Below are positions 5,219 through 32,747 of a stretch of 32,747 nt of DNA, in pieces. Under the pieces are notes generated by a model that searched no databases, had not been told where the DNA came from, and saw only the letters and a list, made by a program, of their open reading frames with translations. Position 1 is the stretch's first letter, and the number at the start of each line of letters is the position of its first letter. Made by a program: the position numbers and the translations under genes. Source of the stretch: an uncultured Oscillospiraceae bacterium (GTDB lineage Bacteria; Bacillota; Clostridia; Christensenellales; CAG-314); the NCBI GenBank assembly GCA_964474475.1, contig CAYYTD010000002.1:1-32747 (forward strand), read 5' to 3'.

Positions 5219-5240
5219 CGGACGGTTTGGAGGAAAAAGG

Positions 5241-6482: not shown

Positions 6483-6484
6483 TT

Positions 6485-7276: not shown

Positions 7277-7319
7277 TTTTGCTTGAGCAAACTATTTAAT
7301 TTTAGCAGAGGATGTTATT

Positions 7320-8561: not shown

Positions 8562-8631
8562 TATTGCAGTACAACAAGCAGTTTTTTAACAAACAAAGTT
8601 CTTTGCACGTAGCAAAAGGAATACATTCCAT

Positions 8632-10323
8632 ATGAATTTGAATTACGAATTATTGTTGTTTTTCGTTTATAGAAAAATAATTAAACGTAAAGACGTAGAG
8701 CCTATTATGGCGGCATGCAAAAAGCTTCAATTACCCGTTGAAACTTACCTGATTGCCAAAGAGTATTGTACCGAAGTTACCGCGCTCGAGGCAATGGCGG
8801 ATTTCTACTGCATGCCCTGTTGCGAATTGGACATGCTCGACATCGACGAGGATTTGTTTGCGCAGTTCGGCTACGATTTCATGAAAAAGCACAAGGTCAT
8901 TCCCGTTTGTCGCAACAAGAAGGGAGTGTTGTTGCTTGCCGTGGCACGTCCGCTCGATTGCAACGCCGTGTCGGCAATCAATTCCCGCTTTACTTGCCCG
9001 TTGGATTTCGTCCTTGTGCCGGCAGTTCAAATAGACAGGCACATCGACTCCATCGTTGCGGTAATTTCCACCTCAACCGCTCTTGACGACCTCAATGCTG
9101 AAAAGGACAAGGAACTGGCAAAGGCAAACAACGCTGGCGACTTTAACGGCGTTGGCAAGGAAGACGACGTAATTAACACTTCCGCAGTGCGCTTGGTCGA
9201 TTCTATCATTCGTGAGGCAATTCCCTACCGCGCAAGCGACATTCACATTGAGCCCTTCGAAAAGGTAGTTAAAGTGCGTTACCGCATCGACGGCGATTTG
9301 CAACCGCGTGCGGAGTTCCCCATCGAAAGTTACGCTGCAATTTGCGCGCGTATTAAAATAATTTCCGGCATCAACATTGCTGAACGCCGCGTTCCGCAAG
9401 ACGGCCGTATCAACATGATCATCGGCGACAAGGAATACGACTTCCGCGTGTCGTCGTTGCCCACCGTTTACGGCGAAAAGTTCGTTATTCGTATTTTGGA
9501 CAAAACTTCCTTCAACTTTACTCGTGCCGACCTTGGCTTTACCGACAGGGAAAACGCCATTGTCGATAAGATTTTGGAGCGTCCTCACGGCATAGTGCTG
9601 CTTACCGGCCCCACCGGTTGCGGAAAGAGCACTACGTTGTACTCCTTCTTGAAGGAAATCAACAAGCCCAACGTAAATATAGTTACGGTTGAAGATCCCG
9701 TGGAATACACCCTGTTTGGAGTAAACCAAACTCAGGTTAACACCAAGGCAAATATGACCTTTGCTTCCGCCCTTCGCTCCATTTTGCGTCAAGACCCTGA
9801 TATTATCATGATAGGCGAAATTCGTGACGAAGAAACGGCGCAAATAGCCATTAGAGCGGCAATTACCGGGCACTTGGTATTTTCTACGTTGCACACCAAC
9901 GACGCTCCCGGCGCAATAGTGCGTTTGGAAGACATGGGCGTAGAAGATTACCTCGTATCCGATGCGTTGGTTGGCGTTATTGCCCAACGTTTGGTCAAGC
10001 GTTTGTGCCCTGCATGCAAAAAGAAGGGCAAAACCACCGCCAAGGAAATGGAATTGCTCGGCATAAAAGAGCCTGTGACGATTTATCGTCCGCAAGGCTG
10101 TCAGTTCTGCAACGAAACGGGCTACAAAGGCCGTATTGCCGTTCACGAAATAATGCATCTCAACGACGAGATGAGACAAGTAATATCCAAAGAAAAGACT
10201 ATTGAAGGATTGAGAAACATCGCTTTACAAAACGGCATGCACACCCTGTGGGATTCCTGCAAGGAGTACGTGTTGGCAGGGGTAACCAGCCTGCAAGAAT
10301 TGGTCTCCCTTTCCGTCGAGTAA
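8632..10323 (+). CDS. pilB: Type IV pilus assembly ATPase (GspE/PilB family)
   Basis: Walker A GPTGCGKST, Asp/His boxes, and tetracysteine CPACKK...CQFCNETGYKGR. N-terminal T2SSE_N-like region. The start could instead be Met26 (8707). Confidence 0.93.
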   Translation: MNLNYELLLFFVYRKIIKRKDVEPIMAACKKLQLPVETYLIAKEYCTEVTALEAMADFYCMPCCELDMLDIDEDLFAQFGYDFMKKHKVIPVCRNKKGVLLLAVARPLDCNAVSAINSRFTCPLDFVLVPAVQIDRHIDSIVAVISTSTALDDLNAEKDKELAKANNAGDFNGVGKEDDVINTSAVRLVDSIIREAIPYRASDIHIEPFEKVVKVRYRIDGDLQPRAEFPIESYAAICARIKIISGINIAERRVPQDGRINMIIGDKEYDFRVSSLPTVYGEKFVIRILDKTSFNFTRADLGFTDRENAIVDKILERPHGIVLLTGPTGCGKSTTLYSFLKEINKPNVNIVTVEDPVEYTLFGVNQTQVNTKANMTFASALRSILRQDPDIIMIGEIRDEETAQIAIRAAITGHLVFSTLHTNDAPGAIVRLEDMGVEDYLVSDALVGVIAQRLVKRLCPACKKKGKTTAKEMELLGIKEPVTIYRPQGCQFCNETGYKGRIAVHEIMHLNDEMRQVISKEKTIEGLRNIALQNGMHTLWDSCKEYVLAGVTSLQELVSLSVE

Positions 10324-13429: not shown

Positions 13430-14338
13430 TTAGGCCTTGTCAAAGCGCTTGTCCTTGCCGTTAAGCTTGGCAACGAAGGTTTGCTTTTGGTCAATCAGCC
13501 TCGAGAATACTCGTTCGTCGTATTTTTCTCGTAATTGCGCAAGGCTCAGGTTGGTAGAAATAAACGTTTGCTTGCCTGCCGTCATACGCTCGTTGAGCAA
13601 AATAAAGGTGTATTCGGCAGTTACGTTTTTGTAGGTTTTTTCGGTGCCGAGGTCGTCTATTACAAGCACATCAACGTCCGTCAGGTTGTCTAACACGAGT
13701 TTTTTAGTTTGCAAATCGCCAAGATAGCATTCCAAAAACAAGTTGTTAAGTTTGTAAGCGGTAACGAACAATACGCTTTGGTTTTGCTTTGCGCATCTGT
13801 TTGCGCAGGAACACAGCAAGTAGGTTTTGCCCGTGCCGGTGGGGCCAAGCAACAAAAAGTTTTTCAAATGCTTTTCGTCGCACAGGCGCTTTGCCATTTT
13901 GTAAATTTTCACGTTTTCCGGTTGGTTTTCCGTCGATGCTTCAAAGGAACAGTTTTCAAGCGGAATGTTGCTTTGCGACAGAATTATGCTCCGCATTTCT
14001 TCAAGCAAACAGCTGCACGCCTTGCCGTCAACGTAGCCCGTGTCGTTGCATTTTGCGCAGGAATAGTGCGGCTCAAGGTCGCCTGCCGAAACGTGGTACT
14101 TTGCAAGTAACTCGTTGTATTTTGTCGTGGCTTGTTCAAGCTCGGCTTTAGCTTGTTGCATTTGTTCGTCTGTGCCAAGGGCAAGTTTCACCATGGCTTG
14201 TCGCCTAACCTTTTCGCATTCGGCAAAGTCGGCGTGGGAACGTAACGCTTCAAGCGTTTTTTCGCACTTTTCTTCGGCAAGATAGCGGCGACAGTCAATT
14301 TCTCTTTTAGATAGCTCTATCAGTTGAGATTTGTTCAT
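13430..14338 (-). CDS. dnaI: DnaI/DnaC-type helicase loader ATPase
   Basis: Walker A GPTGTGKT, Walker B VLVIDDLG, N-terminal Zn motif CAKCNDTGY...CSC. TAATG overlap with the upstream gene. Confidence 0.85.
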   Translation of the reverse strand: MNKSQLIELSKREIDCRRYLAEEKCEKTLEALRSHADFAECEKVRRQAMVKLALGTDEQMQQAKAELEQATTKYNELLAKYHVSAGDLEPHYSCAKCNDTGYVDGKACSCLLEEMRSIILSQSNIPLENCSFEASTENQPENVKIYKMAKRLCDEKHLKNFLLLGPTGTGKTYLLCSCANRCAKQNQSVLFVTAYKLNNLFLECYLGDLQTKKLVLDNLTDVDVLVIDDLGTEKTYKNVTAEYTFILLNERMTAGKQTFISTNLSLAQLREKYDERVFSRLIDQKQTFVAKLNGKDKRFDKA

Positions 14339-15792
14339 TATTCCTCCGCATCGTCTAACGACGTAAACAGCGCATTAAGCTGATCTTCGGTGTATTCTCT
14401 TCGTTCAATGTCCATTCCGCCAACGTATGCGGTTGTTGCCGCTGCCTGCTTGGCTGCACTTTCGTGCGGGGTGTTCTTGGCTTGTTCTACGGAGCAAATT
14501 CCCTTTTGCTTGTAGTCGGACAAAACCCTGTTCACGTACGCCATGGGCGATGTGGTTCCCGATGCTTTTTGAGATGCAAAATATATCAGTTCTTCGGGCA
14601 TTTGCCAATTTTGAGTCCAGGTTTTGTACAGGTTTCTGTCCGAAGGCGTAACCTTTCTTTCCAAACCGCAACAGTTAAGCACTTTCAGTATTTTTTCGTC
14701 CGTTCGCGTAACGGTTTGCAAGTATTCGTCCAAGGCGGCAAGCGTGGTTACGCCGTTTTTGTATAGTTTACTTATCACCGACGACATGCCTGCAAGCGTG
14801 CGAATGCCGCTGCGGAAGCAATATTTGGCTATGGCAAGGATGGTTTCGTCATCAAATCCCTTGCGAAGCCAATCGGTAAGATATTCGTCCACTACGGCGT
14901 CAAGGCTTTGGTAGTACACGCCGATGGCTTTGTTTACGCTGCGTGCCAATTCGTACAAACGGTTTTTTTCGTTTTCGTAAAAGTCAATTTCTTTTACGGA
15001 CAACGCACCCTTTTTGTAGTATTCGCACAGGCGCGAATCCAGCTTGTTCATTCCGCCCGACTTGGTCTTTTTGGCTACGGCGGTTATTACGTCTTGGGTA
15101 AAGCCAAAGTCTTTGGTCCATTTTTCGTAACGTTCGCGGTCTTCGTATTCAAATTTTCTGTTTAACGCCAGCGCCTTGAAGAGAATTTTAAGGTCGTCGT
15201 CGTATTTTTGTTGGCTGTTCAGGTTGTCTTGAACGGTTGCCAGAGTGGTGGCGCCTTTCGTTAGTTGATTTCTTGCAACGGTTAGTATGTACCTGTAGTT
15301 AATGGACGTCCCTTTCAGTTCGGCACAGTACTTTGCCACGGCAACTAACGCATCCGGTTCAAATGTGGTATTTTCCAAAAAGGTGTAATACTCGTTGTAT
15401 TCGTTGGGGGTAATCATTCTTCCCTCCAACACCTGTTGAATGTCTTTGCTGAATTTTGCGTACTTGGAGGGTTTGATTTTTTTTAATGCCGATGCGGAGT
15501 TTCTCATGGCAAGGTACACCACACAAGGGGGATTGTCCCCGGTGAGATGCACGAGGCCAAGTTCTTCCCAATATAAAAAGGCGTCCAGCACGTCTTGTTC
15601 GCTTATGCCCAACTTGTTTGCGATGGTGGCGCAGCCGTTGTCGGCACCGTTGCTGTCGCAAAGTACAAGCCCAAGCAAATAAACCGCACTGCGCACGTCG
15701 GGCGCATCGGGCAGATAGTTGATTATAAATTTGTTTTCAACGCTTGTAACGCCGTTTTCAACAAGTTGTTTTTCTTTGTCGCAAAATTTCAT
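14338..15792 (-). CDS. DnaD-domain replication initiation/helicase-loading protein (Bacillus DnaB-like, not the helicase)
   Basis: 484 aa with repeated DnaB_2/DnaD-like segments (LGISEQDVLDAFLYWEELGLVHL; later helix-rich repeats). GAGGG RBS. Coupled to dnaI. Confidence 0.75.
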   Translation of the reverse strand: MKFCDKEKQLVENGVTSVENKFIINYLPDAPDVRSAVYLLGLVLCDSNGADNGCATIANKLGISEQDVLDAFLYWEELGLVHLTGDNPPCVVYLAMRNSASALKKIKPSKYAKFSKDIQQVLEGRMITPNEYNEYYTFLENTTFEPDALVAVAKYCAELKGTSINYRYILTVARNQLTKGATTLATVQDNLNSQQKYDDDLKILFKALALNRKFEYEDRERYEKWTKDFGFTQDVITAVAKKTKSGGMNKLDSRLCEYYKKGALSVKEIDFYENEKNRLYELARSVNKAIGVYYQSLDAVVDEYLTDWLRKGFDDETILAIAKYCFRSGIRTLAGMSSVISKLYKNGVTTLAALDEYLQTVTRTDEKILKVLNCCGLERKVTPSDRNLYKTWTQNWQMPEELIYFASQKASGTTSPMAYVNRVLSDYKQKGICSVEQAKNTPHESAAKQAAATTAYVGGMDIERREYTEDQLNALFTSLDDAEE

Positions 15793-16025: not shown

Positions 16026-19000
16026 ATGCGTATTGTCAAATTAGTTGCGGTAGACGCGCAAACGGACGAAAAACAAACCTTCACTTTCGGCACGTCGAGT
16101 AGCGGGAAACCGTTGGTTGCCGCCAAGGGCGGAAGGCTCAATTCCTATTTGGAGTTTTGCTTTACCGACGAGGCGGAAAGCGTAAAAGACGTTGAAGTGG
16201 AGTTTTCCGTAGAGGGGCAACTTTACAGTTTGTCTAAAACTCATACGCAAGAGGGCGTCAAAACTTTGCTCAAAGCCTTGCAGGATGGCAAGTGGAACGT
16301 GGTTGCGCGCGCCAACGCCACCGAATACGTCGAACGGCTCATTGGCGAAAGCGTTGGCGACATGCTCAAACAAGACTTTGTCAACAACGCCGCAGTGGAA
16401 GGTTTTGACGGCAATTTGCTTGCTTTTGAAAAGATAAGGTTGCTTGCCGAAGTGGAACAAACCATTTCGCAATCTTCGCAAGAAGCTCAACGCATGTGGG
16501 ACAGTGCACGCAGCAAGGTTAAGCAGTACGCATCGTCGCAAAACGACGAACCCGTCGTCACGCCGGAGCAAATAGAAGAAATAGAGGTGGAGTTGGAAGA
16601 AATTTCTTCCAAACTTGCAAACGCCACTGCGGAGCTGGCGGACTTAAAGGAACAGTACGCCGCAAGCAGTTTCGTCCAAGACGTTCAGCGTGAGCTTCAA
16701 TCGGCGCAGGAAAAGTATAATTTGCTTATAGGCAAGCAAAACGAAATAGACAAGTTGCGTTCCGCCTTGCGCTTGCGTGAGGATGTCGACGCTTTACTTC
16801 CCAAGGTAAATACTCTCAAAGAGATAATCCGCCAAAAGGACGAATACGAAAAGAAACGTTACGCAGTCACGTCGGAAATAGAGTGGCAGCAAAACGAGTT
16901 GGACGGCATAGAAAAATCGCTTGAAGAAAAGAACAAGCTGTTCGTTGCCACGCAAGACAAGCGCTCGCGCATCGAGGGCATCAACGCCGAACTGACGACC
17001 ATTGCCTCGCTGTACGAAAAGAATCGCAACCTCAACCAACGGTTGACCGACCTGACGGAAAAGGAACAACGTCTTGCGGCGGAAAAGGTAATGTACGCCA
17101 ATAAGCTGGATGCAATCGAAAAATCCCTTGCCGAACTGAATCAAAGCCTTTCGGAATTCAGCATTCCGTCAAAATCGGTGGGAGAGCTGCTCGAGGCGGT
17201 TAGGGTTGACGTAAAAATTGACGAGGTTACGTCGCAGATAGACAAGCTGAACGGCGAAATAGCGGTAAAGGAAAGTCGCATTGCCGAAAAGGAAAGCAAC
17301 CTCGTCGTTCAAGTAAAAAGATTCCGCTCCGTTGCGGAGTTGGACGTGGCAGTAACGCCCATCAAGGCAAAGGATACCATTTTGCAAGTGCTTGACTCCA
17401 AGTACGCCAAGTTGGAAACGGTCAACGCATCGTTGGAAGAAAAACTCATCAACCTTAGGCGCGCGGCGGAAGAGTACAAGTACAAAATTTTGCAAGTAGA
17501 GCAATCGCGTGCGGTTCTGGAGGGGCGCCGCGACAAAGCGCTTTTGGTCAAGCAAGAGGAATTCAAGCGTGAAGTGTTCTTGAATAGCCAAAAGACCTAT
17601 TCCGACGATGCTTCGGGGGTTTTTGCCGTAACGGTAAACTTTAACGATAGCGAAATAGATTCGTTGAATCGTCAAATTGCCGATCGTGTTGCCAAAAAGG
17701 AAGATTATTTGCGCCGTGCAAGCGCGTTAGAAGGTTCCATAAAGGAAATTGCCCGCCACATAGACGTCAACTCTGCCGACATGGCAACGTTGAACAAAGA
17801 AAAGGCCAATATTGTCAACAGGTACAACGAGATTATTTCTCAAAATACCGGTGAAGCGGCGTTTAACTACGTAAAGGCGTTGAGCAGCAACAACGGCACG
17901 CAATACCTGTTGGACGTGCAACAAGAGGCGGTTCGTTCCGAGGCGGAATTGACGGAGGAAAAACGCACTCTCGAAACGCTCAAGAACAAACTATCCTCTC
18001 TCAAATCGCGGTTGAAGTACCTCACCGATACGCAAATGCAATTAGATTCGCCCCAGGCATCCATCGATGCACTCGTTTCTTCAAACGACAAACTGCGCGA
18101 CGAACTTGCAAGCGTGGGCGAAGGGCTTGCATCCGGCTACGAACAGTACAAAGCGGTAGCACGCCAAATGGAAGGCGTCGACTCCAAGTTGGAAGACGTT
18201 CGTAGTGCAATTATTGAAATAACCAAAACGGTAGGCGTAAACGAAGACCTTGTTGAACAGTGCAACAAGCGCGCAAGAGAGCTCGCCGGTTGTGACGACG
18301 TCGAGCAAGCCGTAGCTAACTTCAAGTACGAACTGGGCGACGTAGAAAGCGAACGGCAAATGCTTGTCGAATCCAAACAAAACGTCGAAAAGGAACTGTT
18401 CAAGAAGCGTCTTGAACTGGAAAAAACGCAGTGGCTGTACGACTCGAAGTGTAACGAGTATTCCGACGTTTACGGCGAATTGAAAATGGAATTCGGCTTG
18501 CGCGGACTTGACGTGGAACAAGCCACGGCAATGAACTTTGACGAATCGGTAGACGAAGGCAAAAAAGTCGTTGCCGATTACGACGCAGCCAAAAAGAGTT
18601 TGGCGGAAAAAATCGACAACCTGTATTCCGTCATCAAGAACAAGTCCGTTTCGCCCATCGCATCGGAGCAGCTTTCTGCCAAACAACGAGAAGTCGATTT
18701 TCTTGTAGAAAGGCAAAAGAGGCTGGAAGAGCAACGGCGCAACTATATGCAAAACTACGTCGTTGCAAGTGCTGCCCGCATGAAGGTTACCGTTGCGGCG
18801 GCAGAGGCAAAAACGTTGGAAAGCCTGCGCACAACCATTGGGCACAACCAAGTAATGGGCTTGCTCATTCGCGACAAAGTTAATTCCGTCGTCACTCTTG
18901 CTTCACAGTACTTCAAGACGTTTGCAGGCAAAAACGCAAGTTTCGTGCTGGATGGTTACACCGTTGCGGTAGAGGCGGATGGCGTTAAAACTGCCTACGT

Positions 19001-19187
19001 TGATTTGCCTTTCGACGTCAAAACCGCCGCATACGTCAGCTTGCTGTTGGCTTGCCCGTCTACGGATACCACCGATGGCAGATGGCTCGTTTTCGAAGAA
19101 CGCATCGCAATGGACACTCAAGCATTGGCACAAATGTTGCTTAACATCAGCGATGTTAGCTACGTGGTGGATTACAGCCGCGAATAG
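16026..19187 (+). CDS. Rad50/SbcC/SMC-like long coiled-coil protein with degenerate ATPase motifs (1053 aa)
   Basis: The N-terminus MRIVKL...FGTSSSGKPLV has the SbcC-like head layout, but Walker A ends GKP. About 850 aa of heptad-rich Glu/Lys/Leu/Gln sequence follows. In the C-terminal head, LPFDV replaces LSGGE and LVFEE replaces hhhhDE. Confidence 0.7.
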   Translation: MRIVKLVAVDAQTDEKQTFTFGTSSSGKPLVAAKGGRLNSYLEFCFTDEAESVKDVEVEFSVEGQLYSLSKTHTQEGVKTLLKALQDGKWNVVARANATEYVERLIGESVGDMLKQDFVNNAAVEGFDGNLLAFEKIRLLAEVEQTISQSSQEAQRMWDSARSKVKQYASSQNDEPVVTPEQIEEIEVELEEISSKLANATAELADLKEQYAASSFVQDVQRELQSAQEKYNLLIGKQNEIDKLRSALRLREDVDALLPKVNTLKEIIRQKDEYEKKRYAVTSEIEWQQNELDGIEKSLEEKNKLFVATQDKRSRIEGINAELTTIASLYEKNRNLNQRLTDLTEKEQRLAAEKVMYANKLDAIEKSLAELNQSLSEFSIPSKSVGELLEAVRVDVKIDEVTSQIDKLNGEIAVKESRIAEKESNLVVQVKRFRSVAELDVAVTPIKAKDTILQVLDSKYAKLETVNASLEEKLINLRRAAEEYKYKILQVEQSRAVLEGRRDKALLVKQEEFKREVFLNSQKTYSDDASGVFAVTVNFNDSEIDSLNRQIADRVAKKEDYLRRASALEGSIKEIARHIDVNSADMATLNKEKANIVNRYNEIISQNTGEAAFNYVKALSSNNGTQYLLDVQQEAVRSEAELTEEKRTLETLKNKLSSLKSRLKYLTDTQMQLDSPQASIDALVSSNDKLRDELASVGEGLASGYEQYKAVARQMEGVDSKLEDVRSAIIEITKTVGVNEDLVEQCNKRARELAGCDDVEQAVANFKYELGDVESERQMLVESKQNVEKELFKKRLELEKTQWLYDSKCNEYSDVYGELKMEFGLRGLDVEQATAMNFDESVDEGKKVVADYDAAKKSLAEKIDNLYSVIKNKSVSPIASEQLSAKQREVDFLVERQKRLEEQRRNYMQNYVVASAARMKVTVAAAEAKTLESLRTTIGHNQVMGLLIRDKVNSVVTLASQYFKTFAGKNASFVLDGYTVAVEADGVKTAYVDLPFDVKTAAYVSLLLACPSTDTTDGRWLVFEERIAMDTQALAQMLLNISDVSYVVDYSRE

Positions 19188-21320: not shown

Positions 21321-22799
21321 TCAATCGGTAATTTCGCCAATTATTTCTTTGCCGTCGGCAAATGCGGCAAATACGTTTTGCAATCCTTTGCCGCCCACCT
21401 GTTCAAAGTGCAGCGCCATCGTTTGCGGAGATGCAATGGTGTAGCAGGCGGCGGCGTAGTAATTTTTCAACGCGCGGAAAAACTTTTCCTTGCCCATCGT
21501 TTCGTAAAGGGTATTAAACATCAAGCTGCCCTTCACGTAGGTCAAAATCACGTATTCGCTGTCGTTTTTGTAATCGGCAAGGCACTTGTAGGAGGTGTCG
21601 GCACGATCGTAGTAGCGGTTTAGTACGTCAACGTAGGTGGTGTAAGTTTTGGTTTTGGCACGGATGCCGTCGGCAAGGGGTTTTTCGCCCCGTTCGTCCA
21701 AGTATTGCATGGTCAAAAATTCCGCCAAACCTTCGTCCATCCAGGCATCGTTAAATTGGTCGTTGCCAACAATTCCGTAAAACCACTGGTGCGCTGTTTC
21801 GTGAATTACTGCCTCCCTGTACGAAGAGCTGCCGCTCGTCACCATCGATAGGCACGGGTATTCCATTCCGCCGTAACAGAATTCCGTTTCGCACACGGAG
21901 TACTGGGCGTAAGGGTATTCGCTTATCTTGGACGAAAAGTACTTCAAGGTGTCGCAGGCAAGTTTCAAAGTGTTTTCCGCATCCTTGTCGGCGTAGTAAT
22001 AGTAGTTAACTTGCACTCCGTCGGCATCGGTGGTCAGTTTCTTAAAGTTTTTCGATGCCACCAGCGCAAAATCTCTCACGGCACTTGCCGAAAACTTTAG
22101 CGTGTCGACAGTGTTGTCCGACGTAGCCTCCACCAAAACGCCGCTCGATGCCGCCACGTAGCCCTTTGGCACAATCATGGTAACGTCGTAGTTGGCAACT
22201 TCGCTCACAAAGGGATCTCCCACGTTGCAGTAGGGCGTGCACACGTAGTTGCCGCCGTCCACGTCGCACAAAACGGGGTAAAAGTTGCCCAGGTTAATGG
22301 TTGCATCGGTGTAGCCAAGTCGGTGCTTTACGTTGGCAATAACAATTTCGCAGTCCATTTGCACCGTTACGCTTTCTCCGCCAAACAATTCTTTGCCCAG
22401 CGGCACGGAAAGTATGTCGTTGTCGGTGCCTTCAATTACAAAGGCAACGGGGGTTCCGTCCACCTTTACTTGGTCAAAGGTTATCTTGCCAAAGCTGTCG
22501 CCGTTGGGGTAAGCGGCGCTTTTGTACACGTTGGGTACAACGCTCGTTTGTGCATCCTCTCGGTATTGATTTGCGTATATGTGAAATTTCACTTCCGTCA
22601 CGGCGTTTTGCGCGCGGTTGGTTAGGCGGACCGTTTCGGCAAGGCTCAGCGTGTGGCTTGACTCGTCCCAGCTTGCCACAAGGTTGTAGTCGTCGGCGTT
22701 TGCGGCGGCGGCACGTTGCGGGTCGGTTGCACAGCCGAGCAAGGTCGATGCGCACAGGGCAAGTAGGGCAATTAGCAAAAGGGCAGTTAATCTTTTCAT
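21321..22799 (-). CDS. M1-family zinc metallopeptidase, lipoprotein (492 aa)
   Basis: HETAH-X18-E gluzincin motif and a GGMEYP variant of GAMEN. Signal MKRLTALLLIALLALCASTLLGC (lipobox LLGC) starts at 22799 with a GGAG RBS. Confidence 0.88.
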   Translation of the reverse strand: MKRLTALLLIALLALCASTLLGCATDPQRAAAANADDYNLVASWDESSHTLSLAETVRLTNRAQNAVTEVKFHIYANQYREDAQTSVVPNVYKSAAYPNGDSFGKITFDQVKVDGTPVAFVIEGTDNDILSVPLGKELFGGESVTVQMDCEIVIANVKHRLGYTDATINLGNFYPVLCDVDGGNYVCTPYCNVGDPFVSEVANYDVTMIVPKGYVAASSGVLVEATSDNTVDTLKFSASAVRDFALVASKNFKKLTTDADGVQVNYYYYADKDAENTLKLACDTLKYFSSKISEYPYAQYSVCETEFCYGGMEYPCLSMVTSGSSSYREAVIHETAHQWFYGIVGNDQFNDAWMDEGLAEFLTMQYLDERGEKPLADGIRAKTKTYTTYVDVLNRYYDRADTSYKCLADYKNDSEYVILTYVKGSLMFNTLYETMGKEKFFRALKNYYAAACYTIASPQTMALHFEQVGGKGLQNVFAAFADGKEIIGEITD

Positions 22800-22884
22800 T
22801 GCAATCTCCAATGGCGATGTATTCTGTGCCATTGTATGATTTGCACCTTGCATTTATTCGTGTCCACGGCAAAAATGGGGCAGT

Positions 22885-23310: not shown

Positions 23311-26300
23311 ATGAAAAAGACAAAATTGATGCTTGTCATTATTTTGGCTTTGATAATGGTTGCTTCGCTCACGCTCGTGGCATGCGATCCGTCAACGGAT
23401 CCTTGTCAAGACGGCAAGCACGTAGATATCAACGGAGACGGAATCTGCGATATCTGTCAAGCCAAAGTAGAAGCTAAATGCACTCACGCCGACGCAAACC
23501 ATGACGGCGTTTGCGACAAGTGCAGCGAACCCGGTCTCACCGTTGAACACACTTGGGCAAACGGCGTATGCTTCGGCTGCGGCAAAACCTGCGTTCACGA
23601 ATGGGAAAGCGGCGTTTGCAAAGTTTGCGCTCTTGTTTGTGCACACACCTTTGGCGCTACTGACGGCGTTTGCACGATTTGCGGCACGAAGGACCCCAAC
23701 TACGATCCCGAATGTTATCCTCACGTCATCGTAAACGGCGTTTGCACCAACTGCGGTAAAGGTTGCAACCACGTGTGGGTTAACGGAGTTTGCTCCGTGT
23801 GCAGCTTCCAATGCGATCACGAATGGGCAAACGGTGTTTGCACCACTTGTAGCGCAGCTTGTGCTCACGACTGGACGGACAGACAGGGCGAATGCAGCAT
23901 CTGCCACAGCACCTGCACGGCTCACCAATTCAAGTTTGGCCTTTGCCTTACTTGCGGTGTAAAGGATGCCAACCCGTCCGAAACGTGGACCTACAACCAG
24001 GCAACCTCTCAATTGCCCACCGGTTGGAACGAACTCAACTACCAAGCTAATACTGCAACGTTGGTACTCGACTACACAACGGGCGGATTCTTCACCTTCG
24101 ACTACAACGCAACCAAAGACGGTTACGTAATGGTTCCCGCCATGGCTAAAGACTTCCCCACCAACGTTACTGCGGAATACGCAAGCAAGTGGGGCATCAA
24201 ACCCGAAGACGACGGCTCCTACTCTCCTTACATTTGGAAGCTCGAACTCCGTCACGACCTTCGTTTCGACAACGGCGACCGCATCACCACGGCAGACTTT
24301 ATCGAAACTGCAAAGCGTTTGCTCGCTCCCGAAGCTGCCAACTACCGTGCTAACAGCTTGTACAGCGGTTCTATGGTTATCGTAGGTGCCGAAAACTACG
24401 CAAAGCAAGGCTCCGTTGGTTACGAGCCCATCGAATGGGATGACGACGGAAAATACAACGGCAAATTGTGGGCAGAACTCTCCGAAGAAGAACAAAAGAA
24501 CATATTCTTCTCTCTCGAAGGTTCCACTGTTGCTCAATGGGCTAAAAAGAATTATTCTTCGTACGCAGTATCTTACGTTTTGTACGCACTGTTTGGGGCG
24601 GAAAGTGAAGCTGCAGTCAAGGCTCTTGATGAAAAATCCGCTTACGAAATTTTGAACGACCCCGCCATGAAAGCAACTTACGAAACGTTGCTTGGCGCAT
24701 GGCAAACCGATCCGGGCGAAGAATTCGACTTCTTCTCTGAAAAGATCACCTGGTCCGAATTCTCTTGGGAAAACGTAGGTTTGGTTGCTTTGGATGAATA
24801 TAACTTGTTGTTCGTTCTCAAAAAGCCCCTTGAAGGTTTCTACCTTCACTATGCAATGGGTCTTCCCCTCGTTCACGTAGAAACTTACGACGCTTGCGCC
24901 AAGATCGAAGGTGGCGTGTACACCAACACTTACGGCACCAGCGTAGATACCTTCGTAGGTTACGGTCCTTACCGTCTTACCTACTTCGTTGCCGACAACT
25001 CCATTCAATTCACCAAGAATGAATTCTGGTACGGCTACAACGACGAAGTAAACAAGTCTTTGTATCAAACTACCGGCGTTTCCATCAAGAAGATTACCGG
25101 CGACACTCGTTTGCAAGCCTTCTTGAAGGGTGAAACAGACAGCTACGGTCTTGAAGCAAAGGATATGGAAGATTACCAACAAAGTAAGTATAACTACTTT
25201 ACCGAAGGTGACTCCACTTGGTTCGTTGCTCTCAACCCCAGCACTGACGGCCTCAGGTCGGCAGAAGAACTTGCCAATGCAAACAAACCGGAAAAAACCG
25301 TCGTCAAGCGCATCCTTGCCATTAAGGAATTCCGTCAAGCATTGTCCTTTGCAATTGACCGTGCAAACTACGCTTTGACGCTCGACCCGATGAGCAGCAC
25401 TGCTTTGGCACTTTACGGCAACATGATCATTGCCGACCCCGAACTCGGTACCGCTTACCGCACTACGGAACAAGCCAAGGACACCATCCTTAACTTCTGG
25501 GGATTGTCCAACTGGGATACTCTCGTTGACGAAGACGGCGAACGTCTGTACGCCACCAAGGAAGAAGCTATTGCATCCATCAAGGGTTACGACCCCGCCG
25601 GTGCAAAAACCTTGTTCGACAAAGCTTACGACGAAGCAGTAAAACGCGAATTCATCACCGCAGAAATGATCGCATCCGGCAAATGGGTTGTTCAAATTAT
25701 TATCGGCAAACCTGCTGAACACGATTACTACAACAACGGTTACAACTACCTCAACCAAGTTTGGGCCGAAGCAATCAAGGGCACCAAGTTGGAAGGCCAC
25801 GTAGAGTTCAAGCAGTCTCAAGTTCTTGGCGACAGCTTTGCGGAATTCTTGCAAAGAAACGAAGTTGACGTGTTGTTCGGCGTTGGTTGGACGGGATCGA
25901 CTCTTGACCCGTACGGCCTCATCGAAGCTTACGTAAGCCCCAACTACCAATACGACCCCGCTTGGGATACCACCGGCACCACTGCCGACATCACCCACGA
26001 AGGCAAGGTTCTCCGTGCATCGGTATATGATTGGTACTTGGCTCTTGCAGGCGAAAAGATTACTACGGTTGTAGTAGGCGCCGACGGCAAGGAAACGGAA
26101 GAAACGGTGGAAATTACTGCAGGTCCCTCTGCAGAAATGGAACTCCGCGTCAGCATCCTTGCAACCATCGAAAACGCAGTTCTTCAACAGTACGACATGA
26201 TTCCCGTTGGTAACGAAGCATCGGCATCCTTGAAGGGTATGAGAATCAAGTTCTACACCGAAGAATACGTGTTCGGCGTTGGTCGTGGCGGCATCAAGTA

Positions 26301-26394
26301 CATGACTTACGACGAAACAATCGGTAGCGACCAAGCTTGGGCTGAATACGTAAAAGCTCAAGGCGGCACGCTTAATTACAAGGTAAGTAACTAA
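23311..26394 (+). CDS. Family-5 (Opp/Dpp/Nik-type) ABC substrate-binding lipoprotein, 1027 aa, with an N-terminal Cys/His-rich repeat region
   Basis: GGAGG RBS. Signal MKKTKLMLVIILALIMVASLTLVAC (lipobox). SBP_bac_5-like core (WKLELRHDLRFDNGDRITTADFIETAKRLL). Residues 25-220 hold ~30 Cys in ten repeats. Confidence 0.88.
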   Translation: MKKTKLMLVIILALIMVASLTLVACDPSTDPCQDGKHVDINGDGICDICQAKVEAKCTHADANHDGVCDKCSEPGLTVEHTWANGVCFGCGKTCVHEWESGVCKVCALVCAHTFGATDGVCTICGTKDPNYDPECYPHVIVNGVCTNCGKGCNHVWVNGVCSVCSFQCDHEWANGVCTTCSAACAHDWTDRQGECSICHSTCTAHQFKFGLCLTCGVKDANPSETWTYNQATSQLPTGWNELNYQANTATLVLDYTTGGFFTFDYNATKDGYVMVPAMAKDFPTNVTAEYASKWGIKPEDDGSYSPYIWKLELRHDLRFDNGDRITTADFIETAKRLLAPEAANYRANSLYSGSMVIVGAENYAKQGSVGYEPIEWDDDGKYNGKLWAELSEEEQKNIFFSLEGSTVAQWAKKNYSSYAVSYVLYALFGAESEAAVKALDEKSAYEILNDPAMKATYETLLGAWQTDPGEEFDFFSEKITWSEFSWENVGLVALDEYNLLFVLKKPLEGFYLHYAMGLPLVHVETYDACAKIEGGVYTNTYGTSVDTFVGYGPYRLTYFVADNSIQFTKNEFWYGYNDEVNKSLYQTTGVSIKKITGDTRLQAFLKGETDSYGLEAKDMEDYQQSKYNYFTEGDSTWFVALNPSTDGLRSAEELANANKPEKTVVKRILAIKEFRQALSFAIDRANYALTLDPMSSTALALYGNMIIADPELGTAYRTTEQAKDTILNFWGLSNWDTLVDEDGERLYATKEEAIASIKGYDPAGAKTLFDKAYDEAVKREFITAEMIASGKWVVQIIIGKPAEHDYYNNGYNYLNQVWAEAIKGTKLEGHVEFKQSQVLGDSFAEFLQRNEVDVLFGVGWTGSTLDPYGLIEAYVSPNYQYDPAWDTTGTTADITHEGKVLRASVYDWYLALAGEKITTVVVGADGKETEETVEITAGPSAEMELRVSILATIENAVLQQYDMIPVGNEASASLKGMRIKFYTEEYVFGVGRGGIKYMTYDETIGSDQAWAEYVKAQGGTLNYKVSN

Positions 26395-26518: not shown

Positions 26519-26611
26519 ACGCTTAACGACTTTTCAATTTTTAATAGTATTTTGTCAAGTTCGGACGCGTTTCCGAATTTGGCTAAGTACTACAACAAGG
26601 AGAATACAGCC

Positions 26612-27901
26612 ATGTATTTACTAAAATACATTCTAAAGCGCGTTTTGCTGATGCTGTTCGTGTTCATCGTTATTTCAACGATGTGCTTCGTGCTGATCAA
26701 AATGCTGCCCAACAGGCCCGCCAAGGAATTTGGCGCAGACCAAGCAATTATTGAGGCAAAGCGCGAAATGATGGGTTACGACCGAACCTACATGGAACAA
26801 TACTTCTTTTACATTTTCGGTAGAGTCGGTTACACCTACGATGTGCTGGACGAGCACGGCAACAAAATTCAAGAGACGGATACTTCCGGCAATTTGAAGT
26901 GGTTGCAACAAGACAAGCTGGACGAAAACGGCGACGTGATGTATTGGCAAAATGAAAAGGGCGAATACCTTGATGCCAGCGGAAACGTGACCACTCGCCC
27001 CGGACACTACGTTGCTCTTCAAGAAGACGTGTTGGACGAAAACGGCAACAAAATACCCGTTTACAAGCAAAAAACCGTCTACAACAAAGCCGACCTGCCC
27101 GAAAGCATTGCTGCTAACAGCAAGCTTTACACTCGCAAAAGCTACGGCGGCATCATTCGCGGCAGCTTTGGTCCCAGCGAAAAGTTCCAAGTAGGCGTTG
27201 ACGTAGGTAAAATATTTGCCGACCGTCTTCCTTACACGATGGCAGTAAACCTGTACTCCATTTTGTTGTCCATTCCTTTGGGTTTGGGACTTGGCATTAT
27301 TGCCGCTCTCAAAAAGAACAAATGGCAGGACCACGTAATTAGCATTGGCGTAATGATTTTCGTTTCCGTGCCCAGCTTTATTTACGGATTCATCGTTAAG
27401 TACCTGTTCTACTACAAACTTGGTTGGACGACCTCCATTATGGACACTACTCAAGGCCCGTGGAGCTGGACGGCACTCAAAACCATGTACGCGGCAGTGC
27501 TGTGCTTGTCCTTTGGTAGTATTGCAGGCTTTGCCCGTTACACTCGTGCGGAGCTGACGGAAGTGCTTACAAGCGAATTTATGTTGCTTGCACGTACCAA
27601 GGGCTTAACCCGTGGACAAGCTACCTTGCGACACGCCTTGCGTAATGCAATGGTGCCCATCTTCCCCATGATTTTGGGCGAGTTCGTCAGCATTTTGAGC
27701 GGCTCACTTATCATTGAGGACATGTACTCCATTCCGGGTGTTGGAGCGCTGTACGTTACGGCAGTTCAATCCAACCCGCCGGATACGAACTTATTTATGC
27801 TCATCGGCATGTTCTACACGCTTATCGGCCTTGCCGCTAACATCGTGGTAGACATCAGCTACGGTATCATCGACCCGCGTATCAGAATGGGGGCAAGATA
27901 A
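26612..27901 (+). CDS. ABC importer permease (OppB/DppB-type) with an enlarged extracytoplasmic loop
   Basis: AAGGAG RBS at 26597-26602. N-terminus MYLLKYILKRVLLMLFVFIV is typical of OppB. The C-terminal BPD_transp_1 region ends IDPRIR. About 150 extra aa lie between TM1 and TM2. Confidence 0.88.
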   Translation: MYLLKYILKRVLLMLFVFIVISTMCFVLIKMLPNRPAKEFGADQAIIEAKREMMGYDRTYMEQYFFYIFGRVGYTYDVLDEHGNKIQETDTSGNLKWLQQDKLDENGDVMYWQNEKGEYLDASGNVTTRPGHYVALQEDVLDENGNKIPVYKQKTVYNKADLPESIAANSKLYTRKSYGGIIRGSFGPSEKFQVGVDVGKIFADRLPYTMAVNLYSILLSIPLGLGLGIIAALKKNKWQDHVISIGVMIFVSVPSFIYGFIVKYLFYYKLGWTTSIMDTTQGPWSWTALKTMYAAVLCLSFGSIAGFARYTRAELTEVLTSEFMLLARTKGLTRGQATLRHALRNAMVPIFPMILGEFVSILSGSLIIEDMYSIPGVGALYVTAVQSNPPDTNLFMLIGMFYTLIGLAANIVVDISYGIIDPRIRMGAR

Positions 27902-27903
27902 TT

Positions 27904-29544
27904 ATGAATAACAATCAATTTGAATTATACAACGATATACCGCAAGATAAATTTGCCTTTGCCAAGTCGGCAGGTGACAGGCACGATCAAAAGCTTGACA
28001 CCAAGCCGGTAGGTTACTTCCGTGATGCGTTTTCGCGCTTTGCCAAGAACAAGGCGTCCGTAGTTGCGGCAATAGTAATTTTGATTTTGATACTGTACGC
28101 CATCGTTGGTCCTTTCTTTATCGAGGACAGCTACGTAGACGCTTACGCAACGGACAAATACATTGCAATGTACCAAAACTTGCTTCCTCGCTTGAACATT
28201 TTTGAGGGTACAGGCTTTTGGGATGGTTCGGAAGTGAAAGAAGTATCCTCCGCAACTTACTGGAAGTACAAAGGAATAGCGCAAGAAACGGGGCTAAACC
28301 CCATCCAAAAGGTTATTTCTATGGAAGTGGTCGGCGACGAAATAGTCGGACAGTCCATCATGTACAAGCTGCGTGTGGATACCTACTACACCCTTAAAAC
28401 GTTCGAAGTTACATTTGCCAGCCTTGAGGAATTTCGCGAATTGCAACGTTGGCAGGACGAAAACGGCATTCAAGTAATTTTGCCCACCGTTGACCGCACC
28501 AAGAGCAAAATCACATCCGACATGAGCGTTTGGTACGAGTGCGACAGGCAAGGTGTGCCCGCGTTTGACGAAAACGGAGAGCTTATCCCTGCGTACGTTC
28601 AAACGGGAACGGACAAGTACGACAGCACCATGCGTATTGCCGGTGACCCCGGTATTAAAGCGTTGGAGCGTGTTGCAGGCATCACCGACGAAGAAGAACG
28701 CCAAGCAGCGTTAAATGCCGACGAAGACTGGCTCCATCGTTACCGTTACGCCTACCGTGGCTCGTCCGGTGCAGGCGACGGCGCACTCAACTATGTAGTT
28801 CGTGTAAACGCTTACAATTATTTTAGGTATCAATACGGCTTTAAACCCGGCTTTGCATTTGGAACCAACAGCAAGGGCTACGACATCTTTACCCGTCTTG
28901 CAAGCGGTGCGCGTTTCAGCTTTATTTTGGCTATTTGCGTATCCGTCATCAACCTTACCATTGGCGCAATTTACGGTGCAATCGAGGGTTACTACGGCGG
29001 CGCTGCGGATATGATTATGGAACGTGTTTCGGACATTTTGAGCGGCGTTCCGAGTACGGTAGTGACCATATTATTCCAGCTACACCTAGCGGACAAGGTA
29101 GGTGTGGTGGGGGCACTGGTGTACTCCTTTGTGCTAACCGGCTGGATAGGCATGGCATCTAGCGTGCGTATGCAGTTCTACCGATACAAAAATCAGGAAT
29201 ACGTTTTGGCGGCGCGCACTTTGGGCGCAAACGACTGGCGTATCATTTGGAAACACATCTTCCCCAACTCGTTGGGCACGCTAATTACCGGCAGTGTGTT
29301 CGTCATTCCGGGCGTAATGCTCAGCGAAACGTCACTGTCCTACTTGGGCATTCTCAATTTGGACAGCCCCACGCGCGCATCCATCGGTGCAATGCTTTCG
29401 GCAGGCAAGGACAACATGTCTACCTATCCTCACGTTGTGTTCTTCCCCGCACTGTTCATTGGCTTGTTGATGATTTGCTTCAACCTGTTCGGCAACGGAC
29501 TTCGCGATGCCTTTAACCCCGCTTTGCGCGGCACGGAGGAGTGA
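27904..29544 (+). CDS. ABC importer permease (OppC/DppC-type) with a ~230-aa extracytoplasmic insertion
   Basis: OppC_N-like FSRFAKNKASVVAAIVILILILYAIVGPFF. The C-terminal permease core ends GNGLRDAFNP. 546 aa versus a usual ~300. Confidence 0.88.
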   Translation: MNNNQFELYNDIPQDKFAFAKSAGDRHDQKLDTKPVGYFRDAFSRFAKNKASVVAAIVILILILYAIVGPFFIEDSYVDAYATDKYIAMYQNLLPRLNIFEGTGFWDGSEVKEVSSATYWKYKGIAQETGLNPIQKVISMEVVGDEIVGQSIMYKLRVDTYYTLKTFEVTFASLEEFRELQRWQDENGIQVILPTVDRTKSKITSDMSVWYECDRQGVPAFDENGELIPAYVQTGTDKYDSTMRIAGDPGIKALERVAGITDEEERQAALNADEDWLHRYRYAYRGSSGAGDGALNYVVRVNAYNYFRYQYGFKPGFAFGTNSKGYDIFTRLASGARFSFILAICVSVINLTIGAIYGAIEGYYGGAADMIMERVSDILSGVPSTVVTILFQLHLADKVGVVGALVYSFVLTGWIGMASSVRMQFYRYKNQEYVLAARTLGANDWRIIWKHIFPNSLGTLITGSVFVIPGVMLSETSLSYLGILNLDSPTRASIGAMLSAGKDNMSTYPHVVFFPALFIGLLMICFNLFGNGLRDAFNPALRGTEE

Positions 29545-29545
29545 T

Positions 29546-31702
29546 ATGGAAAAGAAACTTGAAGTAAAAAACTTAATCATTTCCTTCCGCACACAGGGCG
29601 GCAAGGTGCAGGCTGTTCGCAACATCAATTTTGACCTGTACAAGGGCGAAACCTTGGCAATAGTGGGCGAATCGGGTAGCGGCAAATCCGTTACCAACCG
29701 TGCCGTTATCGGCATTTTGGCAGGCAACGCCATCGTAGAAGGTGGCGAAATCATCTACGACGGACAAGATTTGCTCAAAATTTCCGAAGACGAATTTCAC
29801 AAAATTCGCGGCGACAAAATCGCCATGATCTTCCAAGACCCTATGTCCAGCCTCAACCCCATCATGAAGGTGGGCAAGCAGCTTACCGAAGCAATGCTTT
29901 TGAAGAGCAGCTCGGGCAGAAAAAACGCTCGCCGCAACTTTAACGGCAAGCTCAAGTTGCTCAACGCCACCATGAACGAAGTGGCAGGCGGCAACGAAGA
30001 ACAAATTCAGTACAACGTGGAAAGCTGCAAAACTTTTGATAGTTTTTGCATTAACAGCACCAAGTTGGAGAGCGCCTACAACGAAATTCGCCGTAGAACG
30101 GTAGAATTGGAGTTGGACGTTCAAGACGTACTGTTTTTGATTTCCAAAAATCAAAAAATCGAAGTTGGCAAAACGCTCAAACACGTTCTTGCCGCGCTGC
30201 CCACAACCCTTCACCCCGACATCGTGGTTATGGACGAACGCTTGACGGCGGACATGGCAGTCCTCAAGGAAGAACTTGCCGTCAAGGAAGCCGAAACGCT
30301 GTCCGAAAAGGCTCAAAAAGCGCTTGAAGACATCGACGAAATTCTCAACGCCGCAATCAGCCGTCCAGGCCCCAACTACTTCACATTGGGATACTACATG
30401 ATGAAGAATCCCGAGGCGCAGTTGGACGACATGCCCCTTGACGAGTTGACTACCATGACGCGTGAATTCCTCGATGAAGACTTCATGCTCAAGTTTATTG
30501 AGGAAGGCGCCAAGGCAATGGCACTTTCTCACGAAAAGAGTATCGCAGCCAAAGTTGCGTTGTTGCCCGAACTTGACAAGCTGGAAGAATTGTTCTCCGC
30601 CGAAGAGCTGAACAAAAAACAATGCCTTGCGGCAATCAAAGCCGTTTCGGCCAAAGTGAAGGGAGCAATCAACAATTTGCTCGTCCACAAAAACAGTACG
30701 GAATTCGTGTTTGAATCCAGCTTGACGGACGCAGTGGATAAGTACTTCTTCGGCATTGTAAATAACCCCAAAGAGATTGCTCGTTTCGAAAAACAAAGCG
30801 AAAAGTACCAAAAGGCGCTGGATAAGGGCAAAACCCCCGATTACAAAATTATTCCTGCCGCTTTGGTCGACTTGGAACTTGCCAAGGAAAATATTCGCAA
30901 GGTAATTCGCGGCTTGGCAGATAACTATGCTAACCAAATTGCCAACGCCGATCAATTCGATGCAAAGGCGCAAATGGTGGATCTCATCGACTATCTCAAG
31001 GAACAAGCTTCCGCCGTGGTGCAAAAGATCACGCCCAAAATGGCCAAAGCCAAGGCGCTCAACTTGCTCAAAGAGGTTGGTATTCCCGAGCCTGCAATTC
31101 GTTACAATCAATATCCCTTTGAGTTTTCCGGCGGTATGCGCCAACGTATAGTTATTGCAATTGCGCTTGCTGCCAACCCGGATATCCTCATTTGCGACGA
31201 ACCGACGACTGCGTTGGACGTTACCATTCAATCTCAAATTCTTGAATTGATCAACCGCATCAAGGCGGAACGTAACTTGTCCGTAATATTCATCACGCAC
31301 GACTTGGGTGTCGTTGCAAACATGGCGGACAGAATTGCCGTTATGTACGCAGGTAAAATTGTCGAGTACGGCACGGCGGACGATGTATTCTACGATCCTC
31401 GCCATCCTTACACTTGGGCTTTGCTCAGTTCCATGCCCGACCTTGACACCAAGGAAAAGCTGGAAGCAATTCCCGGAACTCCGCCCAACATGATTTATCC
31501 GCCGCAAGGCGACGCATTTGCCGCTCGTAACAAGTACGCGCTGGAAATCGACTTTGAACAGCAACCGCCAATGTTCCAGGTGTCCGATACTCACTACGCT
31601 GCAACTTGGTTGTTGCACCCCAACGCTCCTCACGTAGACCCGCCGCGTATCGTAACGGATCGCATCGAGCGTATGTCCAAAAAGGAACAGGAGGTAAAGT
31701 AA
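29546..31702 (+). CDS. ABC importer ATPase (OppD-type) with a ~375-aa insertion inside the NBD
   Basis: GGAGGA RBS. Walker [10 protein letters not shown]-loop [11 protein letters not shown], then ~375 helical residues before signature FSGGMRQR. Walker [10 protein letters not shown]-loop ITHD, and a C-terminal oligo_HPY-like tail. Confidence 0.9.
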
Positions 31703-31703
31703 A

Positions 31704-32747
31704 ATGGCAGATAACAAACAAGTTTTGCTGTCGGTGCAGCACCTCGAACAGTTTTTCAAAATGGGCAGGCAACAGCTCAAAGCCGTCAACGACGTAAGCT
31801 TTGACATTTACAAGGGCGAAGTTTTTGGTTTGGTTGGCGAATCGGGCTGCGGCAAAACGACCACCGGACGTTCTATTATTCGTTTATACGACATAACGGG
31901 CGGCTCGGTGTACTTTGACGGACAGCGTATTTGCGCGGGCATCCGCACCTACAAACAAGCCGTTGCCGATGCGAAAGCAAAGGCACAGGCGCAATTGGAG
32001 GTGCTGAACGCGCAACCGCAGTCGGCCGAACGTGACGCCGAGATGGCTGCCATTCGCGCGGAGTTGGAAGCGGAAATCAAAAAGCAAACGGAAGAAATCC
32101 GCAAGGCGAAGGACGATCACAAGAATTGCAACAAAAAGTACGCCAGGGCGCAAATGCAAGCCGTCAAGGACGAGTATTTGCCTCGGTTGGATGCAATGCC
32201 TGAAAGCGAAGAAAAGGAAAAGCTCCAGGCGGAATACAAGTCGGCGTTGAAACTTGCGTCGAAAGATAGGATCATGAACAAAATCCAAATGATTTTCCAG
32301 GATCCCATTGCATCGCTCAATCCCCGTATGACCGTTCGTGAAATTATTGCCGAAGGTCTTATCGTTAGAGGAATCAAAGACAAGCAGTACATTGACGAGC
32401 AAGTATTTAAGGTTTTGGATTTGGTCGGTTTGGTTCCGGAACACGCAAACCGTTATCCGCACGAGTTTTCGGGCGGTCAGCGTCAGCGTATCGGCATTGC
32501 ACGCGCAATCGTGCTCAACCCAGAGTTGATCATTGCCGACGAGCCCATTTCGGCATTGGACGTTTCCATTCAAGCGCAAGTAATTAACCTGCTCAACGAT
32601 TTGCGTCACGACTTGGGACTCACCATCATGTTCATCGCGCACGACTTGTCCGTCGTCAAGTACTTCTCGGACAGAATTGCCGTAATGTACTTTGGTAAGA
32701 TAGTGGAGTTGACCACCAGTGACGAACTGTTCAGTCATCCGTTGCAT
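31704..32747 (+). CDS. ABC importer ATPase (OppF-type), 3'-truncated by the window, with a ~100-aa coiled-coil insertion
   Basis: Not in the supplied track because there is no stop in the window. AGGAGG RBS at 31689-31694 and ATG at 31704; the frame is open for 348 codons. Walker [45 protein letters not shown]. Confidence 0.9.

Follow-up and report, generated by a model that had tools for sequence, protein, structure and literature searches.

The window analyzed here, 32,747 bp of contig CAYYTD010000002.1 from an uncultured Oscillospiraceae bacterium (assembly GCA_964474475.1), encodes a lipoprotein of 1027 amino acids (23311-26394, +), in which an array of ten Cys/His-rich mini-units separates the predicted lipid anchor from a family-5 solute-binding domain. 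These units belong to a repeat family that is real, sizeable, and essentially uncatalogued: the repeat has invariant residues, the family is widespread on exported proteins, and it is absent from the curated libraries. In orthologues with the same operon, the array is replaceable by other linkers. We put at roughly 55% the probability that the array consists of metal-stabilized β-hairpin mini-domains acting as a protease-resistant stalk; the binding of metal, probably zinc, and the stiffness of the stalk are parts of this reading that we infer.

The signal peptide and lipobox (MKKTKLMLVIILALIMVASLTLVA-C25; 23311-23385, +) were read directly from the sequence. Bacterial lipoproteins were recognized by a basic n-region, a hydrophobic h-region, and a lipobox of the form [LVI][ASTVI][GAS]C within about 35 residues, and inspection revealed all three, arranged as MKKTK-LMLVIILALIMVASLT-LVA-C25. 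The lipobox is L-V-A-C, the TGC codon of Cys25 lies at 23383-23385, and this residue is the predicted site of lipid modification and membrane anchor. Between residues 26 and 225, there are 29 Cys and 12 His. This segment also includes ten CxxC motifs, which lie at positions 46, 68, 87, 103, 121, 145, 161, 177, 195, and 212 and are each preceded by a His 3-9 residues upstream; the ten units can be written as H-x(5-9)-C-x-x-C. A single Cys, C529, was found in the other 803 residues. Shuffling of the 200 residues of the array (n = 20,000) gave 1.4 units on average and 7 at most versus the 10 observed. An earlier note on this DNA had reported about 30 Cys immediately after Cys25; this observation is real and non-random, and the five example strings quoted there were all present. 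The remainder of the protein (residues ~225-1027 and the stop codon; 23983-26394, +) is an enlarged family-5 solute-binding domain: SBP_bac_5 (PF00496) matched this C-terminal part at E = 6.9e-28, scoring 98.2 bits where the cut-off is 32.4, and the domain is conserved from its T-Y-N / P-T-x-W-N start onward across 80 orthologues of the solute-binding protein (SBP).

All units are encoded on the forward strand. Unit 1 (residues 32-49; 23404-23457; CQDGKHVDINGDGICDIC) and unit 2 (residues 57-71; 23479-23523; CTHADANHDGVCDKC) form a distinct Asp-rich subtype, H-x-D-x-N-x-D-G-x-C-D-x-C, with C-x4-H in unit 1. Their D-x-N-x-D-G-x-C-D loops (D39-I-N-G-D-G-I-C-D47 and D61-A-N-H-D-G-V-C-D69) have the D-x-[DN]-x-D-G-x-x-D spacing of EF-hand and dockerin Ca loops, and an alignment of array-bearing homologues (A5) shows no variation at D, N, D, G, and D; no Pfam match was obtained. 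The subtype may represent a mini-domain for both Ca and Zn. Unit 2 is the best-conserved unit in the alignment (H, D, N, H, D, G, C, D, and C are invariant), and unit 1 was modeled by AlphaFold2 (AF2) with a lower predicted local distance difference test (pLDDT) score of about 57-66. Unit 3 (residues 80-90; 23548-23580; HTWANGVCFGC) is devoid of the leading Cys. Unit 4 (residues 94-106; 23590-23628; CVHEWESGVCKVC) is canonical, with an AF2 hairpin formed by W98-E99 and V102-C103. Unit 5 (residues 110-124; 23638-23682; CAHTFGATDGVCTIC) closes the first sub-array with C-x-x-C-G-x-x-D-P. A ten-residue break, GTKDPNYDPE (23683-23712, +), which is kept in the homologues P0012 and P0003, separates it from the second sub-array. 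The latter starts with unit 6 (residues 135-148; 23713-23754; CYPHVIVNGVCTNC), having C-x-x-H, and continues with the canonical units 7 (residues 152-164; 23764-23802; CNHVWVNGVCSVC; pLDDT of 79.8 in the AF2 di-unit model) and 8 (residues 168-180; 23812-23850; CDHEWANGVCTTC), unit 9 (residues 184-198; 23860-23904; CAHDWTDRQGECSIC), and unit 10 (residues 202-215; 23914-23955; CTAHQFKFGLCLTC), again with C-x-x-H and followed by GVKDANPS, where the array ends.

The repeat pattern described in the earlier note is correct apart from minor points, units 1-3, 6, and 10 departing from it as given above. At the DNA level, Tandem Repeats Finder detected no tandem repeat, which indicates that the units are old and diverged. 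The 12-mer AACGGCGTTTGC, encoding N-G-V-C and thought to recur, occurs exactly only once; near-recurrence was confirmed, with seven copies at ≤1 mismatch, all inside the array, versus 0.74 expected window-wide. Compared with a 97%-identical relative, the array accumulated 5.6% substitutions and the rest of the protein 2.5%, none of them at a Cys or His.

From 93 canonical units of the homologues, we derived a consensus that repeats every 16 residues: C-[STE]-H-x-[WFY]-x-[ND]-G-[VI]-C-[TS]-[VI]-C-G-x-x. We searched a 32-column two-unit profile—the check suggested in the earlier note—against 1.84 billion representative proteins. It matched 902 clusters at E <= 1e-3; of these, 371 remained at E <= 1e-10 and 78 at E <= 1e-30. 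For P0003, the 97%-identical relative, E was 5e-26. A word-indexed homology search with the array alone returned 2 proteins only, and one with a 48-aa tri-unit profile returned none. The arrays comprise from 3 to 43 strictly spaced units, reaching about 79 units in one protein of 3200 aa. An N-terminal hydrophobic segment was present in 126 of 141 representatives, and in 71 of them the array begins <=90 residues from this segment; judging by these segments, almost all proteins of the family look exported.

The partner domains, identified in part by a Pfam scan of 44 + 7 member proteins, are varied and extracellular: VanY, GH25 with SH3_3, leucine-rich repeats of the BspA type (LRR_5), Flg_new, Glug, CBM26, CBM48, Esterase (9/44), CotH, fn3, and DUF4465 with Big_2. 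Where the source names them, the proteins are annotated as "hypothetical protein" of Clostridia or Ruminococcus metagenome-assembled genomes (MAGs); the hosts identifiable by name are anaerobes, namely Clostridia MAGs from the gut or rumen. In several giant relatives (P0026, P0044, P0046, P0047, and P0049), the 16-aa units alternate with two further elements—a recurring segment beginning YYLFGYING and a longer Cys module, C-T-x-x-G-x5-C-x2-C-G-x(8-12)-P-A-x-G-H—neither of which had a Pfam match.

The array of the window remained below every curated cut-off of Pfam-A and NCBIfam. Among the Pfam families matched by the 44 + 7 members, there was no Cys/His repeat family, with the exception of one weak match to DUF5650 (PF18888), a "Repeat of unknown function". 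It concerned 1 of 44 member proteins: the array of P0054 passed the gathering score (32.2 bits versus 25) in six stretches. This likeness is not shared by the array of the window and 14 other arrays tested, which did not match DUF5650 even at E <= 10, and the function of DUF5650 is undescribed. Membership in DUF5650 was rejected because the array of the window did not reach 25 bits. A literature search found neither the repeat nor DUF5650 described.

Sequence and profile searches of the PDB gave nothing significant (E >= 0.2); the best repeated match was the L37e zinc ribbon, with E = 0.35 by profile. Foldseek searches with the di-unit and array models did not give significant matches either, the best being an NZF finger (E = 2.6). 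These weak matches were to zinc modules in 18 of 18 cases for the di-unit and in most cases for the array, and the Foldseek and profile matches together fall, with one exception, on zinc modules of the NZF, L37e, TFIIH, PHD/RING, DZR, and Zn_Ribbon families; the Pfam families DZR and Zn_Ribbon scored 8-18 bits, under their cut-offs. The units were compared with several known classes of Cys-rich motif. The retroviral-type CCHC zinc knuckle (C-x2-C-x4-H-x4-C) was rejected, as it differs from the order found here, (C)-x-H-x6-8-C-x2-C, and gave no Pfam match. Zinc ribbons are defined by two C-x-x-C or C/H knuckles flanking a β-hairpin and by a structural match to solved ribbons; each unit of the array has just one CxxC, and the matches to ribbons are the weak ones given above. 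Attachment of c-type haem was rejected on the basis of CxxCH occurring in only 1 of 10 motifs (CSICH, residues 195-199), the consensus residue after CxxC being Gly, and a metallothionein-like cluster was rejected in view of the conserved aromatic residue, Gly, and hairpin.

The putative ligands are almost perfectly conserved. In canonical context, the first Cys is present in 582 of 585 cases, His in 613 of 617, and each of the CxxC cysteines in 577 of 577; within arrays, His was found in 98% of the non-first units. As the earlier note supposed, a Cys3-His ligand set is on offer in the units, with His as invariant as Cys. This equal invariance, together with three Cys per unit, favors a Cys3His metal site over a disulfide knot. 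Judging from these ligands, the array probably binds metal, Zn(II) being the most probable one.

A metal-free spacer, stiffened by Cys paired within or between units, is an improbable alternative. The very high density of Cys (29 in 200 residues) would agree with it, as would one weak Foldseek match to a disulfide-rich EGF array (Delta-like 1, E = 3.8) and the DsbA or VKOR homologues encoded by some clostridia (PMC12453122). However, the numbers of Cys are odd both in the unit (three), which poorly fits intra-unit disulfides, and in the array (29), and pairing of Cys leaves the invariance of His unexplained. Moreover, the named hosts are gut anaerobes, and no bias towards even numbers of Cys, expected of disulfides, is found in the exported proteins of anaerobic Gram-positive bacteria (PMC2823432). 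His may also replace a missing Cys: a His two residues before CxxC was found in 9.2% of units without Cys at +4 versus 0.7% otherwise (13-fold, p = 1e-15). Of the disulfide-knotted spacer offered by the earlier note, the spacer is thus retained, and it fits best among the three options given there; the disulfides are the less likely chemistry.

The AF2 models, with a pLDDT of 79.8 for the di-unit (33-sequence alignment) and 72.3 for the full array, contain the same hairpin in each unit, in which [WFY]-x and [VI]-C pair about an N-G turn; the CxxC loop is closed by a bridge from the residue before the first CxxC Cys to the third residue past the second. According to the spacing statistics, C-x2-C-x3-C-x-H is a rigid block (x3 is held in 97% of pairs and x1 in 91%), and the loop between His and CxxC is variable, with 6, 7, or 8 residues in 55%, 26%, and 10%, respectively. 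A frequent array ending is C-x-x-C-G-x-x-[DE]-P, such as that following units 5 and 10 of the window protein. Under either register of ligands, an internal unit provides one His and three Cys, as read from the sequence. The Cys completing each predicted site could be the one two residues before His, as assumed in the earlier note, or the one four residues past CxxC; array ends, spacing entropy, the compensating His, and the AF2 bridge pattern give conflicting evidence, and in the window protein the register C-x-H...C-x-x-C leaves one unit a ligand short, while the shifted register leaves three orphan Cys.

The comparison of orthologues is the strongest evidence on function. An alignment-based scan of a genome collection identified 182 relatives, of which the best 80 were kept; an earlier genome scan with the single protein as a query found nothing. 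The labels of the 80 loci are mostly those of Clostridia (Christensenellales, Lachnospiraceae, and Oscillospiraceae), the others being Erysipelotrichaceae, Spirochaetes, and Bacteroidales. The binding protein is encoded in all 80 loci, and OppBCDF follow the SBP gene in 71-78 of them; the operon is kept regardless of the presence of the array. Among the 61 orthologues with a readable N-terminus, a comparable array was found in one (L001). In the others, the lipobox Cys is separated from the conserved Y-T-Y-N start by approximately 10 to 100 residues; this segment is short, rich in S/T/E/P, or made up of one to a few Asp/Cys/His mini-units, H-x-D-x-D-G-D-x-x-C-D-x(2-4)-C. A single mini-unit of the subtype of units 1 and 2 (H-V-D-x-D-G-D-x-x-C-D-x3-C) accounts for most of the linker in L029, L033, and L040 and contributes to that of L043; in L032, several such units are present. 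Among the homologues obtained by protein search, the linker region contains a coiled coil in P0021, a PT-type linker in P0023, and a Big_2 (Ig-like) domain in P0028. Array-bearing orthologues vary by whole units, from 2 to about 13. Tolerance of any linker, variable copy number, and occurrence on many unrelated surface proteins point to a spacer or stalk rather than a substrate-related module.

The earlier note also considered a metal-capturing or metal-storing antenna; such an antenna would feed the transporter or buffer metal at the surface. Up to ten potential sites per array would suit such a role, the family-5 SBPs include NikA and CntA, and CntA is the best, though weak, NCBIfam match of the protein (E = 4e-6). 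Nevertheless, the scores are far under the curated cut-offs: 25.7 bits versus 800 for CntA, the staphylopine-metal binding lipoprotein (NF047575); 18 bits (E = 8.5e-4) versus 393 for NikA (TIGR02294); and 16.9 bits versus 947 for OppA (NF011684), in spite of the operon partners matching OppC_N, oligo_HPY, and BPD_transp_1. A receptor of the NikA/CntA type was therefore rejected, and the suggested link to nickel or metallophore uptake lapses with it. Nor does the array track the transporter, which is present in nearly all loci as given above, and the repeat occurs mostly on non-transport proteins: no SBP domain was found in the 44 scanned members. Cys3His sites are typically tight structural sites rather than exchange sites. 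The antenna is thus unsupported, and we regard it as distinctly unlikely. It would also be a long shot to see the arrays in general as more than struts, namely as exchangeable metal reservoirs or relays of high capacity that gut anaerobes expose at their surface. With 10 to about 80 Cys3His sites in each protein, such arrays would serve either to buffer Zn, Fe, or Ni at the cell surface or to hand metal (or electrons) on through the chain to transporters and wall enzymes; if true, Gram-positive bacteria would have a kind of metal economy at the surface that has yet to be described for them.

The metal-stapled stalk that we prefer would be organized as follows. Ten tiny β-hairpin mini-domains, each with a predicted metal held by one His and three Cys, would form an extracytoplasmic chain from the lipid anchor Cys25 to the solute-binding domain. 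This chain would be stiff and protease-resistant, keeping the binding domain of the Opp-type importer off the membrane and in, or through, the cell wall. An estimated 1-2 nm per unit would give 10-20 nm per array, which is of the order of the Gram-positive wall; rigidity of the array is likewise presumed. By analogy with the coat of Giardia variant-specific surface proteins (VSPs), metal-stapled β structure would withstand gut proteases. In other proteins, the same module may serve as a spacer or connector for unrelated extracellular domains.

Several observations weigh against this reading. All Foldseek and PDB matches are non-significant (E >= 0.2). The predicted template modeling score (pTM) of the AF2 model is 0.36, so it says nothing firm about rigidity. 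The compensation of missing Cys by His relies on 46 units only, of which one protein contributes 22. A complete C-x-H pair is missing upstream in about 59% of array starts, and so is Cys at +4 in about 66% of array ends; terminal units being often short of the fourth ligand, some sites may be three-ligand or completed by Asp, Glu, or water. Finally, conservation of the aromatic residue and the presence of the repeat alongside wall hydrolases would also be compatible with a wall-binding role, in which an aromatic face of the hairpin would bind peptidoglycan or a wall polymer and hold the protein in the wall. Of the 93 canonical units, 91 have an aromatic residue two positions past His, the units are arranged in tandem, and the partners include VanY, GH25, and SH3_3. 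Still, we consider this role unlikely: orthologous SBPs are devoid of the array or have unstructured linkers in its place, the units of giant proteins separate many different domains, and no Pfam similarity to known wall-binding repeats was found.

The array can be compared with further known kinds of protein module. With zinc knuckles and ribbons (retroviral CCHC, ribosomal L37e, and RanBP2/NZF), where all of its weak matches but one fall, it has in common a short β-hairpin followed by a C-x-x-C knuckle and four Cys/His ligands within approximately 13-17 residues. It differs from them in the order of ligands, C-x-H-x6-8-C-x2-C-x3-C instead of C-x2-C-x4-H-x4-C or two CxxC knuckles, and scores significantly with none; furthermore, the arrays described here are extracytoplasmic and can run to dozens of copies, arranged head to tail and joined by a constant 3-residue junction. 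Like the stalk repeats of Gram-positive bacteria (stalk domains of fibrillar adhesins and PT/ST linkers; PMC9210967), the array is tandem, variable in copy number, located between an anchor and a functional domain, and interchangeable with low-complexity linkers in orthologues. Known stalk domains, however, are Ig-like or similar folds of 70-100 residues without metal or Cys, whereas the units of the array have 16 residues and are based on Cys and His.

The CXXC-rich surface proteins of protists (Giardia VSPs and Entamoeba Igl) are likewise extracellular, packed with CXXC, and found in the anaerobic protease-rich gut, and the Giardia VSPs have been reported to bind Zn/Fe and to withstand proteolysis (bioRxiv 10.1101/2022.03.07.483299; PMC6341118). 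In contrast to the array, they are eukaryotic, have neither the 16-residue period nor the invariant His or aromatic residue, and make up a surface coat rather than linkers; the likeness is one of analogy, and homology is not expected. The Pht histidine-triad proteins and the His-rich loops of AdcA/ZnuA resemble the array in being exported or lipid-anchored, with repeated metal-ligand motifs beside ABC importers (PMC3842936). Their sites are His-rich and exchangeable and they belong to zinc importers, whereas the array has Cys3His sites, accompanies an Opp-like importer, and is dispensable in orthologues.

The genes of this importer follow the lipoprotein gene on the forward strand. They encode an OppB-like permease (26552-27901; BPD_transp_1 and BPD_transp_1_N; syntenic in 78/80 loci), an OppC-like permease (27904-29544; OppC_N and BPD_transp_1; 74/80), an OppD-like ATPase with a large insertion (29507-31702; ABC_tran in two stretches and oligo_HPY; 71/80), and an OppF-like ATPase, which runs off the end of the window (31701-32747; ABC_tran; 72/80). 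All four components (26552-32747, +) are oversized, as they are again in about 70 of the orthologous loci. OppB (449 aa) carries long inserts on the extracytoplasmic side, as does OppC (546 aa), an insertion of approximately 350 aa divides ABC_tran (38-163 ... 524-603) in the OppD-like ATPase (731 aa), and the OppF-like ATPase has a charged, coiled-coil-like insertion. Upstream of the SBP gene and divergent from it, an M1-family peptidase with its own lipobox was encoded (21321-22853, -); since it adjoins the SBP in just 3 of 80 loci, it gives little indication of a peptide substrate.

Elsewhere in the window, a putative type IV pilus/competence-like cluster (787-10323, +) was recognized by reading of the translations alone; it appears to contain genes of pilin-like proteins with prepilin leaders, a prepilin peptidase, and PilC-like and PilB-like ATPase genes. 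A protein of 916 aa (10398-13148, +) has GAP1-N2 and GAP1-M domains (GTPase-associated protein 1). A protein of 1053 aa (16026-19187, +), coiled-coil-rich in appearance and with no Pfam match, adjoins a divergent pair of DnaB_2 (DnaD-like) and IstB/DnaC-like genes (13430-15792, -). Long antisense open reading frames of 989, 744, 368, and 287 aa (23392-26361, 29573-31807, 9073-10179, and 31884-32747, respectively, all -) lie opposite Pfam-supported forward-strand genes; most likely, these are an artefact of codon usage and not genes.

Cys-rich, probably zinc-stapled mini-domains are textbook intracellular modules, and the exported proteins of Firmicutes are usually Cys-poor. The array would be a variant of two known kinds, the zinc-knuckle mini-domain and the stalk repeat of surface proteins. 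For the lipoprotein gene, it means that the array is no basis for inferring a metal substrate of the transporter. A 16-residue His-Cys3 unit, present in 2 to about 80 head-to-tail copies and in about 900 clusters of exported proteins, would be a new extracellular building block—a compact, length-tunable, and presumably protease-resistant rod suited to the anoxic gut. It might be used in protein engineering as a minimal linker of programmable length, and it would account for the extended Cys-rich regions that lack annotation in many giant hypothetical proteins from gut and rumen metagenomes.

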